Source of the DNA: Bacillota bacterium
GTDB lineage: Bacteria; Bacillota; Dehalobacteriia; UBA4068; UBA4997
Assembly (NCBI GenBank): GCA_021769035.1
Contig: JAETTP010000001.1
Coordinates: 35,408 to 99,407, forward strand
Direction: 5' to 3'
DNA length: 64,000 nt
Each line of letters starts with the position of its first letter. Position 1 is the stretch's first letter. The notes below the pieces were generated by a model, which saw only the letters and a program-made list of their open reading frames with translations, had not been told where the DNA came from and did no database searches. Shown piece by piece: positions 8,897 to 53,508 of this stretch. The translations under genes were made by a program, and so were the position numbers.

Positions 8897-8938
8897 ATGC
8901 TTGATTTCTCCATTTTAAAATTGAACAAACAAAAATAG
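8897..8938 (+). other. decayed 13-codon peptide ORF (MLDFSILKLNKQK) at the toxin position of a type I TA-like module
   Basis: ATG after AAGAAGGTG. Ends in the shared aatagccgcc...ggcggctatt terminator as the full-length copies do. Confidence 0.25.
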
Positions 8939-9023
8939 CCGCCCAGTTTCGCGATTGTCGCGGCTATTTTTATTATAGAAGCAAAATCGAGGGCTGACCC
9001 GGTTTAAGGGATCCGCTCTTTGT
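8928..9023 (-). ncRNA. antisense sRNA, family 1 (orphan/decayed-toxin copy)
   Basis: Minus-strand TTGACA(9058-9053)-17-TATACT(9035-9030). Body aaatacaaagagcggatcccttaaaccgggtcagccctc... homologous to copies at 11.5, 22.3 and 53.3 kb. Ends in hairpin plus U-run. Confidence 0.4.
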
Positions 9024-9712
9024 ATTTATAGTATAACAAGAAAAATTTGATTTGTCAACTGGTTTTTTGCCAAATTCATACAAAACAGCTAGGCTTACTA
9101 GGCAAGTATTTTGAAGACCAGGTGAAGAATTTGTGAAAAAAAATTAAAAATAATCTGTATTTTAAACACAAAACCCCTTTACGGATTGCAAAGGATGTGG
9201 TATAATCAGCTAAGATAAACTCTGTGTAAACTGATTTGGTTGTGTCAGGTGATGAGGCACAGGGTTTGGGGCCGCAAAAAACGGCCTGGGAGGAGGTTAT
9301 AATTAACGTTCCTTATGTGCTGAAAAGCGCTCCGCCAAAGCTTGCCGGCTTTGGGCAGCTGTTACAGGGGCAGCCCGCCAAAGGCCAACTGCCAAAAGCG
9401 GCCGCGCAACCCAGCATTACATATAGGAAAGCATTTGAAAATGCGCCGTGCCAAAACGTCGGCTGAAGCTAGCAGCCGGCCCCTTGGCCGAAGAACGTTC
9501 ATTCAGCCGCTGGCACGGGCAAAATTACGCAAACAGCAAAAAGGTTCCGTTTGCCCAATTTGGTAGAAGCAATATAAAAGAGGACAGCTAAAAACAGCAA
9601 TTATTTTTTCTTCTCCTCTTTTTGCCGGCTGTTGCCGGTTTTGCTAAAAACAAACGCAGCTTGCCTTGCTTTTTGCTAACAAATGCAAAAAAGAAAAAAG
9701 GAGGAACAAAAC

Positions 9713-11255: not shown

Positions 11256-11284
11256 TTGCTATTTAGCAAAAACTATAGTATAAT
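11256..11284 (+). promoter_or_regulatory. sigma-A type promoter of peptide A mRNA
   Basis: TTGCTA-17-TATAAT. Gives a ~130-nt 5' UTR. Confidence 0.5.
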
Positions 11285-11419
11285 ATTAATTACAAAGAGT
11301 TGAAACCTTAAACAGGCGGTTAGCCCTCGGACGCAAAGCAATACATTCGTGAAAAATGTATGGTTGAACGAAAGAGGGATTGGGGCCCTCCTCACAAAAA
11401 CAACGAGGAGGTGATGTTA

Positions 11420-11503
11420 ATGAGTTTTATGGAAGTCGCAACGTTTTTATTAGTACTTATAGCGTTTGCCGATGTGATATTAACCCATTGCAAAAAGAAA
11501 TAG
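11420..11503 (+). CDS. 27-aa hydrophobic Lys-tailed peptide (MSFMEVATFLLVLIAFADVILTHCKKK), putative type I toxin
   Basis: GAGGAGG SD 7 nt before ATG. That SD is perfectly complementary to an upstream CCTCCTC (SD-sequestering hairpin). Stop lies inside the terminator hairpin shared with the convergent sRNA. Confidence 0.55.
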   Translation: MSFMEVATFLLVLIAFADVILTHCKKK

Positions 11504-11584
11504 CCGCCCAGTTTCGCAGACTCGCGGCTATTCTTTTTAGCTAGCATCTGAGGGCTGACCCAGTTTAAGGGATCGGCTCTTTGT
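11492..11584 (-). ncRNA. antisense sRNA, family 1, putative type I antitoxin
   Basis: Minus-strand TTGACA(11619-11614)-17-TATAAT(11596-11591). Terminator is the same hairpin (11499-11532) followed by U-run. Overlaps peptide A 3' end by ~45 nt. Confidence 0.5.
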
Positions 11585-11760
11585 ACTTATATTATAGCAT
11601 TTGTTTTTGTTGTTGTCAATATGCCAAAAGCGGTTGAATAGAAAGTTTATGTTGTAATTTGTTGGTAAATATGCTATAATGGGACAGAAAAGAGTTGATT
11701 CTTTGGATGGCGGCCAACCTTACTCGTAAACTTTCGTTAAGCGAGGAAGGGGGTGAGCTC

Positions 11761-11844
11761 ATGAGTTTTGTTGAAGTAATTCTTTTACTTAGCTTTCTCA
11801 TTGAGGTTGTGGATTTTGTTTACCGAATCACAACAAAAAAATAG
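11761..11844 (+). CDS. 27-aa hydrophobic peptide variant (MSFVEVILLLSFLIEVVDFVYRITTKK), putative type I toxin
   Basis: Own promoter TTGTAA(11652)-17-TATAAT(11675). [13 protein letters not shown] sequestered by upstream ccttactcg. Stop sits in the atagccg...cggctat terminator. Confidence 0.5.
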   Translation: MSFVEVILLLSFLIEVVDFVYRITTKK

Positions 11845-11930: not shown

Positions 11931-12249
11931 TCTATTATTATAGCATTTGTTTTTGTTGTTGTCAATGCCCTTTTGCCGCCCAAACTCTTTAATGCCTAAT
12001 TTTTACCTAACCGCACCAGCAATACCTTTTCTCAATCGCTAAGTGTTCATAGAGGATTACATTTGCCTAAAGTCAAATGTATGCGTGAACACTAAGCTCT
12101 TGCTACGCCTTACAGGCTAAGCACTCGCTAAGTGTTCACGCAAAAAAACAGTAGACTTTTTGAGCTTGTGGGTGTAAAATATATTTATAAAAATTGTTAA
12201 AGCTTTCAGAAATCGACTTTGCTAACTTGCTCGATTGGAGGAATCAGCG

Positions 12250-22158: not shown

Positions 22159-22277
22159 GTATTTTGGCGTATTTTTTAGTAAAATAATACTGTATTATTA
22201 AGCCTCGGTTCGCCAGCTCAAAAGTTTTTAACGGTTCTGCGATTGACAAAAACAATTTTCAATGCTATAATATAAAT

Positions 22278-22370
22278 ATAAAGAGCCGACCCCTCAAACC
22301 GGGTCAGCCCTCAAAAGCTTCAGTTAAAAATAGCCGTTACCTTTGGAGCAGGGCGGCTATTTCTTTTTGC
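22278..22370 (+). ncRNA. antisense sRNA, family 1, putative type I antitoxin (copy C)
   Basis: TTGACA(22243)-17-TATAAT(22266). Body aaagagccgacccctcaaaccgggtcagccctc. Terminator aatagccg...cggctatttcttttt shared with convergent peptide C. Confidence 0.5.
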
Positions 22371-22440
22371 AATGGGTTAATATCACATCTGCCAACGCTA
22401 TAAGTACTAATAAAAACGTTGCGACCTCCATAAAACTCAT
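22357..22440 (-). CDS. 27-aa hydrophobic peptide (MSFMEVATFLLVLIALADVILTHCKKK), putative type I toxin copy C
   Basis: One residue different from copy A. Same GAGGAGG SD with CCTCCTC anti-SD. Minus-strand promoter TTGCAT(22602-22597)-17-TATAAT(22579-22574). Homologous ~130-nt 5' UTR. Confidence 0.55.
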   Translation of the reverse strand: MSFMEVATFLLVLIALADVILTHCKKK

Positions 22441-22682
22441 CAACATCACCTCCTCTCCTTGCGTTGAGGAGGGCCCCAATCCCTCAGTCAGCCAACTGTA
22501 CATTTTTCACCAATGCACCGTTTAACTTCCAAGGGCTAACCGCCTGTCTGAATTTTCAGCTCTTTGTATTTATATTATACAACCTTTTAGTTTTGTATGC
22601 AAGCTTATTTTAAAGTTGCCAAATCCTCCCTGCTTGTGCTATAATATATATTTAATAACCAGCACAAGCGAGGGATTTTTTT

Positions 22683-47293: not shown

Positions 47294-47364
47294 ACGTTTA
47301 TATTGACAACAGTACTATATTATAGTAAAATATAGGCAAATAATTTTTATAGTGAGGTATAGTT

Positions 47365-47472
47365 ATGCATCTTCCAGTTTATTCTTATGTCTTATCGGCT
47401 GTCAATGTAGTAATATTAGTTGCTATGACCTATTTGGTCTATCGAGTAGCTAAATTTTTCCTGAAAAAGTAA
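47365..47472 (+). CDS. 35-aa hydrophobic Lys-tailed membrane peptide (MHLPVYSYVLSAVNVVILVAMTYLVYRVAKFFLKK)
   Basis: Promoter TTGACA-17-TAAAAT at ~47306. SD GTGAGGT. Strong terminator gagccgcccttttcaaacaaagggcggctttttttgtg immediately after stop. Confidence 0.45.
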   Translation: MHLPVYSYVLSAVNVVILVAMTYLVYRVAKFFLKK

Positions 47473-47539
47473 AGTTTAAGAGAACGAGCCGCCCTTTTCA
47501 AACAAAGGGCGGCTTTTTTTGTGTAAACACTTAGCGATT

Positions 47540-52762: not shown

Positions 52763-52877
52763 ATCATCACCTACTTTCTGCCACACCATAATTATATAAA
52801 AAGCGTGACAAAAAGTCAATAGTTTTTTTGAAAAAATTCAGATTGACAAAAACAATTTAAAATGCTATAATAATAAA

Positions 52878-52963
52878 AAAGGCACCGTAAGTAAGCGGTT
52901 AGCCTCATCGTTTTGGTGTTATTTTTTAACAACCGTCACTACTGACACTAGTGGCGGTTTTTG
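52878..52963 (+). ncRNA. antisense sRNA X4, putative antitoxin of peptide D2
   Basis: TTGACA(52843)-17-TATAAT(52866). Terminator ccgtcact...agtggcgg plus U5. Overlaps last codons of convergent peptide. Confidence 0.45.
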
Positions 52964-53031
52964 CTATGTCTAAACTTAATCTCAATCGAAATTTTAAAAA
53001 TTCCAATATGAAATATCAGCTTTATTGGCAT
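52948..53031 (-). CDS. 27-aa amphipathic basic-tailed peptide (MPIKLIFHIGIFKISIEIKFRHSKNRH), putative type I toxin D2
   Basis: AAGGAGGTG SD 7 nt before ATG. Anti-SD atcctcc-aaaa-ggaggtg hairpin. Minus-strand promoter TTGACA(53238-53233)-17-TATAAT(53215-53210). ~170-nt 5' UTR carrying the CGCTAAGTG hairpin motif. Confidence 0.5.
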   Translation of the reverse strand: MPIKLIFHIGIFKISIEIKFRHSKNRH

Positions 53032-53308
53032 AGGCCTCACCTCCTTTTGGAGGATATTGACTAACCGTTAAGTGAGCACTTAGCGACTGCCAAGGCCGCA
53101 GGCCGCAGACAGAGCTTAGTGCGAACAAATACCGCAGGTGCAAATAGAATTGTCTGAAAACAAAACTTTGCTCCTGCGGTGCCTACCGTTTGTTACGATG
53201 CCTGTTTAAATTATACAAATTATTGTTCTTATTGTCAAGCTGCGCATAAGTTTTTGCTAACCTAATTTTGCGATTGACAAAAGCGATTTGAAATGCTATA
53301 ATAAAAGC

Positions 53309-53403
53309 ACAAAGAGCCGACTCCTTAAACCGGGTCAGCCATCAGAATTTAACAATTACATAAGTAATAGCCGTTTTTCTTGGTCAGGGCGGCTATTTTT
53401 TTT
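53309..53403 (+). ncRNA. antisense sRNA, family 1, orphan copy D (toxin decayed)
   Basis: TTGACA(53274)-17-TATAAT(53297). Body aagcacaaagagccgactccttaaaccgggtcagcc. Terminator aatagccg...cggctat-U9. Opposite strand 53404-53440 keeps only the 3' half of the toxin ORF (…LVLITFADLILTHCKKK*) with no start. Confidence 0.45.
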
Positions 53404-53508
53404 GCAATGGGTTAATATTAAATCGGCAAACGTTATAAGAACTAATAAAACCGCTACTAAATAGCCCTTAGTAGCGGTTTAGTATTATTTTTTTTGAATG
53501 TCAATATC

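Follow-up and report, generated by a model that had tools for sequence, protein, structure and literature searches.

What is encoded at positions 22243 to 22602 of the 64,000-nucleotide (nt) stretch analysed here (the window, from contig JAETTP010000001.1 of a Bacillota bacterium), where a very short open reading frame (ORF) lies between two promoters that face each other? The original prediction described this locus, here called copy C, as the third copy of a family that also occurs at 11.4 kb on the other strand (copy A), and took the conservation of its non-coding parts as a sign of selection on RNA structure. We consider that the locus is probably a chromosomal type I toxin-antitoxin module, built like bsrG/SR4 of Bacillus subtilis. 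The module is a new sequence family of a known kind, a selected, RNA-regulated unit that introduces no new principle. We infer toxicity from the character of the peptide and from the pattern in which its gene is lost, and infer likewise the transcript ends, the involvement of an RNase and the switching-on of translation. The strongest structural feature, which the original prediction overlooked, is the pairing of the two ends of the toxin transcript.

A peptide gene and a putative convergent antisense gene

The features of the module, and the other copies in the window, are listed in Table 1. Transcript ends were placed on the basis of consensus elements, and promoters were judged by their match to consensus.

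Table 1. Features of copy C, followed by the other modules and remnants in the window. Transcripts are predicted. SD, Shine-Dalgarno sequence; CDS, coding sequence; aa, amino acids; T1 and T2, the two hairpins described in the text.
Feature	Positions	Strand	Support or remark
Toxin promoter: -35 TTGCAT (22602..22597), 17-nt spacer, TGt-TATAAT (22579..22574)	22574..22602	-	Consensus match; aligns with TTGCTA-17-TATAAT of copy A
Long toxin transcript, ~296 nt, from ACAAAGAG, 7 nt past the -10 box, to the U-rich tail after T2	22272..22567	-
Closing helix, 5' arm: first ~45 nt of toxin mRNA, nearly the same sequence as the antisense RNA 5' end	22523..22567	-
Leader hairpin with GUGAA-containing loop, holding gtgaaaaatgta	22498..22518	-	z = -2.15
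Block GAGGGAUUGGGGC, then anti-SD CCUCCUC (22472..22466)	22465..22485	-	Invariant in 8/8 sequences
SD GAGGAGG, 7-bp hairpin with anti-SD	22449..22455	-	Hairpin in every fold
Toxin ORF, 27 aa, MSFMEVATFLLVLIALADVILTHCKKK, plus stop	CDS 22440..22357	-	Best 15-residue window, mean hydropathy 2.7
T1, stem AAUAGCCG/CGGCUAUU, U-runs on both strands; antisense terminator	22326..22369	Both	Sequence and antisense folds
Closing helix, 3' arm: T2 (22312..22281, 12 bp including 3 G-U, U-rich tail) plus upstream toehold	22274..22319	-
Antisense promoter TTGACA, 17 nt, TGc-TATAAT	22243..22271	+	12/12 consensus
Antisense RNA, ~92 nt, from AUAAAGAG (22278) to T1	22278..22369	+	Covers last ~4 toxin codons
Copy A: toxin CDS 11420-11503 (F16), antisense promoter 11619..11591	11256..11619	+
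Module B, in tandem directly downstream of A: toxin MSFVEVILLLSFLIEVVDFVYRITTKK (11761-11844), own leader and closing helix	11652..11965	+	nhmmer E = 1e-8
Remnant: T1, T2 and antisense promoter TTGACA-17-TATACT kept	8926..9058	+	Last ~8 toxin codons recognisable
Remnant: toxin without promoter, leader and first ~9 codons (..LLVLITFADLILTHCKKN*); perfect antisense promoter (53274, +) kept	53266..53457	-
Module D: 27-aa ORF MPIKLIFHIGIFKISIEIKFRHSKNRH (53031..52948), CCUCC-AAAA-GGAGG SD hairpin, convergent perfect promoter (52843, +), paired ends	52843..53238	-

The peptide consists of one hydrophobic helix with a KKK tail, and has neither proline nor glycine in its sequence. It differs from the peptide of copy A by the single change F16L, just as originally reported. 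The sequence GGAGG stands 8 nt upstream of the start codon. This is a small hydrophobic peptide gene (<60 aa) with its own ribosome-binding site, as expected of a type I system. When the whole 64 kb was screened for small hydrophobic ORFs preceded by an SD, the four types returned were A, C, B and one unrelated ORF. The toxins of A/C, B and D are each exactly 27 aa long, and the paralog in module B keeps the length and the frame despite an identity of 41%.

The module is bounded by the two -35 boxes, that of the antisense promoter (22243) and that of the toxin promoter (22602). The same perfect antisense promoter, which is of the sigma-70 type, opposes copies A, B and D, and the remnant at 53 kb. 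In module B it is that of copy A to the letter, 100% over 31 nt (11590-11620 = 11936-11966). The leader of copy C is ~127 nt long, with a variable loop of 8-12 nt between the anti-SD and the SD. The convergent promoters, the U-runs of T1 on both strands and the SD hidden in a hairpin with its anti-SD together make up the layout known from par-type systems.

Downstream of the ORF there are two hairpins. In T1 the stem is invariant between copies and the loop varies freely. T2 follows ~15 nt beyond T1, and is the sole terminator-like site called by a scan of the toxin strand. The T2 region with its toehold is the complement of the 5' half of the antisense RNA, and in the opposite strand A-C mismatches stand in place of the G-U pairs of T2. 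The antisense RNA would run through the complement of T2, the spacer and T1. Folded alone, it is predicted to form a weak and imperfect 5' stem-loop, an A/U-rich linker and the terminator. As far as can be judged from the letters, then, this putative antisense gene has a perfect consensus promoter and a terminator hairpin, both of them conserved.

The toxin stop codon lies inside the T1 stem, and the U-tract of the antisense terminator (22360-22368; also 11494-11502 and 11836-11841) is the reverse complement of the C-terminal lysine codons. The lysine tail and the antisense terminator therefore share the same bases. A protein gene on the opposite strand (a 60-aa ORF, 22343-22525) was considered and rejected; its ends vary from copy to copy, and in module B the frame is broken. 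It stays open only because the toxin CDS is invariant.

Predicted pairing of the two ends of the toxin transcript

Toxin RNA and antisense RNA begin with nearly the same ~45 nt, so that the toxin RNA is complementary to itself at its 5' and 3' ends. The DNA carries a corresponding inverted repeat, at 22266-22302 and 22543-22579 in copy C (37 nt, 78% complementary) and at 11287-11316 and 11560-11589 in copy A. The end-to-end helix appears in the minimum free energy structure of every full-length transcript, namely copies A and C in the window and loci L011/L013 and L015 of relatives, and also in those of modules B and D, which are sequence-unrelated. The duplex between the arms has an energy of -61 (A) and -51 (C) kcal/mol, compared to -20 +/- 4 for shuffled arms.

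The folding is strongly asymmetric. The minimum free energy of the copy C toxin-sense RNA is -108.9 kcal/mol (z = -6.3 against dinucleotide shuffles), and that of its complement is -67.9 kcal/mol (z = -2.0). The sense arms are more stable than the antisense arms in five of the six modules, and where the inverted repeat is imperfect, the toxin strand mostly has a G-U pair. Together these observations point to selection at the level of RNA and not of DNA.

The pairing is also preserved by coordinated changes. In alignment A2, 95.7% of the cells at paired positions can pair, as opposed to 33-50% in controls with slid partners. Three pairs of the long-range helix are altered on both sides and six on one. 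The original prediction had pointed to structure in the leader hairpins, and for the hairpin with the GUGAA loop the comparison agrees: among five distinct sequences, four of its seven pairs are altered on both sides, for example UACAUU/AAUGUA as against CACGCCUG/CAGGUGUG. This brings the number of pairs changed on both sides to seven for the two structures combined. The CCTCCTC/GAGGAGG hairpin is invariant, and is therefore uninformative about covariation either way.

Partition-function folding gives the SD an unpaired probability of 0.01-0.04 in all modelled states, and the toxin start codon is partly sequestered. Two further ideas were examined. In a relay model, following SR4, antisense RNA bound at the 3' end would free the 5' arm and so tighten the SD hairpin. 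Folding gives this no support: the accessibility of the SD is the same (0.01-0.04) in the full-length, T1-terminated and antisense-bound states. RNAalifold also proposed a pairing of the leader sequence GGCGGUUA with the 5' arm of T1, UAGCCGCC; all the columns concerned are invariant, and the complementarity is not kept in module B.

On the basis of these features we propose the following mechanism. A moderately strong promoter would produce the ~296-nt mRNA for the 27-aa membrane peptide, and a stronger convergent promoter would yield the ~92-nt antisense RNA, which would pair without mismatch along the final ~95 nt of the toxin mRNA. The target on the mRNA would thus comprise T2, the spacer, T1 and the last codons. 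The free mRNA would be closed, with its first ~45 nt paired to its last ~45 nt and its SD locked in the 7-bp hairpin, and it is therefore predicted to be stable yet poorly translated. The 5' half of the antisense RNA is a near-copy of the 5' arm of the mRNA, and would therefore compete with this arm for the mRNA 3' end. It would invade the closing helix there, free the mRNA 5' end and build a perfect duplex of ~95 bp, which would most likely lead to cleavage by an RNase III-type enzyme and to decay of the mRNA.

Copies, relatives and loss of the toxin

An nhmmer profile of the A/C module, run on the window, found two intact copies, two remnants and paralog B. Module D was missed by this profile and was found via its promoters. 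It has the layout of A/C with an unrelated sequence, its ORF is amphipathic, and its leader contains one copy of a dispersed palindromic repeat, described below. The window therefore holds two intact A/C-type modules, two toxin-less remnants and two further modules of the same architecture (B and D), and to call copy C the third was an undercount. The T2 regions of the remnants at 8926-9058 and 53266-53457 are ~85-90% identical to those of the intact copies. Their antisense genes are apparently intact, and they could be "orphan antitoxins" that act in trans on copies A and C.

In a blastn alignment of 345 nt (E = 8e-92), copies A and C share 82% identity, and beyond the edges of the module there is no further homology. 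The window has exactly two occurrences of the 21-mer GAGGGATTGGGGCCCTCCTCA, one per leader (11374-11394 (+) and 22465-22485 (-)), where chance would give none. It and the other elements named originally, gtgaaaaatgta, the CCTCCTC/GAGGAGG hairpin and the antisense body agagccgaccc...gggtcagccctc, are all present; between the two copies these motifs, like the CDS, reach 92-99% identity. The leader had been described as conserved with only a few substitutions. This holds for the motifs and does not hold for the leader as a whole, in which 99 of 129 aligned positions are identical (77%) and some 30 differ, the differences being confined to loops and linkers.

Among 185,579 species-representative genomes scanned, the toxin peptide was found in only one other, the metagenome-assembled genome (MAG) "Peptococcaceae bacterium ABMPRH_86_1" (JAAWKH01). 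Four further loci were found in metagenomes of the Joint Genome Institute, and there was no match in viral contigs, plasmids or phages. JAAWKH01 has copies at sites syntenic with both A and C. The flanking genes are 73-85% identical between the two genomes, and the intergenic DNA around the modules cannot be aligned. Since both loci are syntenic in both species, the duplication is older than the species split. Module B is missing from the JAAWKH01 locus that is syntenic with A. In more distant relatives, where the neighbouring gene is 63% identical, the upstream gene is a different one and the 168-nt spacer contains no module.

The A' module of the related MAG (L011) is flanked by 60-nt direct repeats, 93% identical (1112-1171, 1253-1312, 1770-1829), which copy the 3' end of the upstream gene; the third and weaker copy is the gene end itself. 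No such repeat occurs around the copies in the window. The repeats may be the trace of an insertion or duplication of the module.

The pattern of conservation shows that the module is under purifying selection. In 10 metagenome contigs of the window's own species the leader is identical throughout. The toxin CDS is 96-99% identical in every comparison, as against 20-80% for the hairpin loops. Synonymous changes affect one or two of 23-26 conserved codons, compared to 30-35% in the flanking genes (P = 0.0002-0.004), and this freeze of synonymous sites spans both the paralogs (22357-22440, 11420-11503) and the species (L011, L015). It points to a probable constraint on the toxin coding region at the nucleotide level, for which constraint on the protein alone would be an insufficient explanation. 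The proposal that RNA structure is selected, and that the copies do not stem from a recent duplication, has thus stood up well: the copies are far from 100% identical (82%), their flanks are unrelated, their positions are syntenic, and there are compensatory changes and a strand asymmetry.

The original prediction also proposed to check whether the copies are polymorphic among related strains. In relatives they are, in that the toxin part is deleted or interrupted and the antisense gene is kept. There are four independent losses or breaks of the toxin, each with the antisense gene retained. Two are the remnants in the window (8926-9058 and 53266-53457). In L015, the ortholog at the C locus, the KKK codons are preceded by an inserted palindromic repeat element of 104 nt. 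A deletion in L019/L020, which come from the closest relative (91% identity in the neighbouring gene), has removed the leader together with 24 codons and has spared T1, T2 and the antisense promoter. Loss of the toxin with retention of the antisense gene fits a toxic peptide that is restrained by an antisense RNA. The window and its relatives form a decay series, with intact, truncated, insertion-broken and deleted toxins and an antidote gene that is always kept, and so provide a compact case for the study of module decay.

Short-read contigs from 10 samples of the window's species, and six contigs of relatives, end inside the toxin gene or the leader (L001-L010, L012, L017-L021). This fits a break of the assembly graph by the repeats, so that modules of this type would be under-represented in MAGs.

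Comparison with known systems, rival explanations and other elements

The peptides have no match in Pfam, NCBIfam, PHROGs, PADLOC or the PDB. The sequences used as positive controls, which we take to be BsrG, TxpA, BsrE and Fst, were validated by their own Pfam matches, the first three to Hol_Tox PF16935 (1e-7 to 4e-14) and Fst to PF13955 (Fst_toxin). The peptide did not match Hol_Tox PF16935 at E <= 10, and hhalign against the Hol_Tox trio gave a probability of 0.9%. Membership of the Hol_Tox or Fst families was rejected, there being no profile match even though the controls worked. The RNAs gave no match to Rfam at the gathering score and only chance-level matches at E <= 10. A 48-aa extended ORF gave no hits in the protein database, there is no record with the exact sequence, and no type I module in Peptococcaceae was found in the literature searched.

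The architecture is more informative. In the bsrG mRNA, 296 nt in length and studied by structure probing, helix P1 joins nt 1-35 to nt 232-262 and the SD lies in a duplex; once SR4 has bound to the 3' part of the mRNA, nt 1-33 become single-stranded (PMC3834814). In Gram-positive type I families generally, the antisense RNA lies on the 3' side and overlaps the ORF (T1TAdb; PMC8594479). The present module resembles bsrG/SR4, and also bsrE/SR5 and txpA/RatA of B. subtilis, in its convergent genes and in an antisense RNA that covers both the 3' end of the toxin mRNA and the last part of the ORF. As in bsrG, there is a structured mRNA of ~296 nt whose 5' ~35-45 nt pair with the 3' segment that is the antisense target (PMC3834814), the SD is in a double-stranded stretch, and the short hydrophobic peptide ends in KKK (PMC3834814; PMC6562991). 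There are also differences. The peptide has 27 aa, where BsrG has 38, and the antisense RNA ~92 nt, where SR4 has 183 nt. Here the toxin's terminator hairpin itself serves as the 3' arm of the closing helix, whereas in bsrG this arm is upstream of the terminator. The SD hairpin already has 7 bp here, and no tightening by the antitoxin is predicted. In silico, the architecture of the TxpA/BsrG/BsrE group is present (3' antisense overlap, and a 5'-3' helix P1 that includes the target), and a match of the antisense RNA to a described RNA family is not.

Other type I systems share parts of this design. In hok/sok and aapA1/IsoA1 the full-length toxin mRNA is likewise closed by 5'-3' pairing and is translationally inert (summarised in PMC3834814; see also PMC6733600), but there the antisense RNA targets the 5' region and 3' trimming activates the mRNA, whereas in the present module the 3' arm itself would be the antisense target; neither the hosts nor the peptides are related. 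CD2517.1/RCd8 of Clostridioides difficile and its relatives have clostridial hosts, convergent overlapping genes, a hydrophobic N-terminus and a lysine-rich C-terminus (PMC6563280), but their toxins are 50-53 aa long and are tied to prophages or CRISPR arrays. No relation in sequence was found, although no direct comparison was made.

The par system (Fst/RNA II of Enterococcus faecalis pAD1) has convergent promoters, a bidirectional terminator, an SD-sequestering 5' stem-loop and a helix in which the very 5' end of the mRNA is tied up (PMC7472228), all with counterparts here. One may ask whether the locus is a type I module of the par/Fst kind, in which the toxin mRNA ends at the shared T1 (~245 nt), the RNAs meet via their terminator loops, and the inverted repeat at the transcript starts serves another purpose, for example as a 5' stability element or for a shared protein partner. 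T1 is indeed symmetrical: in copies A, C, A' and B it is flanked by a U-run on either side. However, in par the leader and the antisense RNA owe their complementarity to direct repeats (PMC7472228), whereas here the repeats are inverted, so that the 5' regions are alike and not complementary. Pairing between the antisense RNA and the leader is at the level of shuffled sequences (z = -1.0 to -1.4), and for the same reason pairing in trans with the ribosome-binding region, in the style of par or SprA1as, was rejected. The peptide has no PXXXG motif and does not match PF13955, and the covariation of the helix, its G-U bias and the strand asymmetry would have no explanation if the 3' arm were not transcribed. 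We regard this reading as rather unlikely.

Two simpler explanations were also weighed. The locus might be a gene for a small, non-toxic membrane protein with a regulatory cis-antisense RNA, part of an ordinary duplicated small-protein regulon. Toxicity is after all only inferred, and the window has another small membrane ORF (47365-47472) that lacks an antisense promoter. Against this, the four independent losses of the peptide gene with the antisense gene intact follow the path of toxin-antidote decay, translation is doubly blocked (the SD sits in its hairpin and the start codon is partly sequestered), the peptide has the weaker of the two promoters, and the modules are multi-copy and in tandem; we therefore think this very unlikely. 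Alternatively, the module might be a miniature mobile repeat with terminal inverted repeats, in which the ORF and the promoter-like hexamers are incidental. The imperfect inverted repeats of ~40 nt at both ends, the dispersed copies and fragments, the short-read assemblies that break inside the element and the direct repeats around the A' copy would all suit such a repeat. But both loci are syntenic between species, the copies are 82% and not ~100% identical, no target-site duplication is seen around the copies in the window, ORF length and frame are kept in paralog B, and the G-U mismatches favour the toxin strand in a markedly strand-asymmetric fold. This makes a mobile repeat extremely improbable.

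Several points weigh against a module of the bsrG/SR4 type. T1 has a U-run in the toxin direction, and many or most transcripts could stop at ~245 nt, without the 3' arm. T2 must fold as a terminator hairpin first and rearrange into the closing helix afterwards. The SD is predicted to be closed in every state, which leaves the production of toxin unexplained. The peptide matches no known toxin family, and module D lacks the greater stability of the sense strand. The covariation comes from only four or five distinct, related sequences, and the same signal could arise if the inverted repeat were homogenised at the DNA level. If the bsrG/SR4-type reading is nevertheless correct, the design in which a closing 5'-3' helix is the antisense target would extend beyond the Bacillus toxin family, which suggests a general solution and not a peculiarity of Bacillus.

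A more far-reaching version of that reading is that the modules make up a hitherto undescribed set, restricted to this lineage, of three types of 27-aa type I toxin (A/C, B and D) that have a single RNA design in common, with extra layers of control. This is improbable. The toxin CDS would be under selection at the RNA level, for example as a target for pairing in trans by the orphan antisense RNAs. The choice between T1 and T2 would be regulated via the GGCGGUUA/UAGCCGCC pairing, with the closed, antitoxin-sensitive long form as the controlled product. The lysine-rich tail would exist in part because the same bases have to encode the U-tract of the antisense terminator.

Some other elements in the window may be mentioned. 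The dispersed palindromic element (...CACTAAGCTCT...CGCTAAGTGTTCAC...) resembles repetitive extragenic palindromic (REP) sequences or miniature inverted-repeat transposable elements (MITEs). It is present at 12082-12142 and 53070-53130 (-), as well as in L015 (1273-1376) and L016, and half-sites are found near 12037, 43121 and 47536 (-). A copy of ~104 nt breaks the toxin ORF before the KKK codons in two metagenome loci.

The small membrane-like ORF mentioned above (35 aa, MHLPVYSYVLSAVNVVILVAMTYLVYRVAKFFLKK, 47365-47472) lies within a separate unit at 47303-47520 (+) that has a TTGACA promoter of its own and also a strong terminator. No antisense promoter was seen facing it, and it has no family match. 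Finally, the region 9180-9460 (+) has a promoter-like TTGCAA..TATAAT, behind which lies a leader that contains CAGGGUUUGGGGCC, a GGCCG/CGGCC hairpin and GGGAGGAGG. The likeness to the leader block of the toxin is loose, and no ATG stands at the usual spacing.

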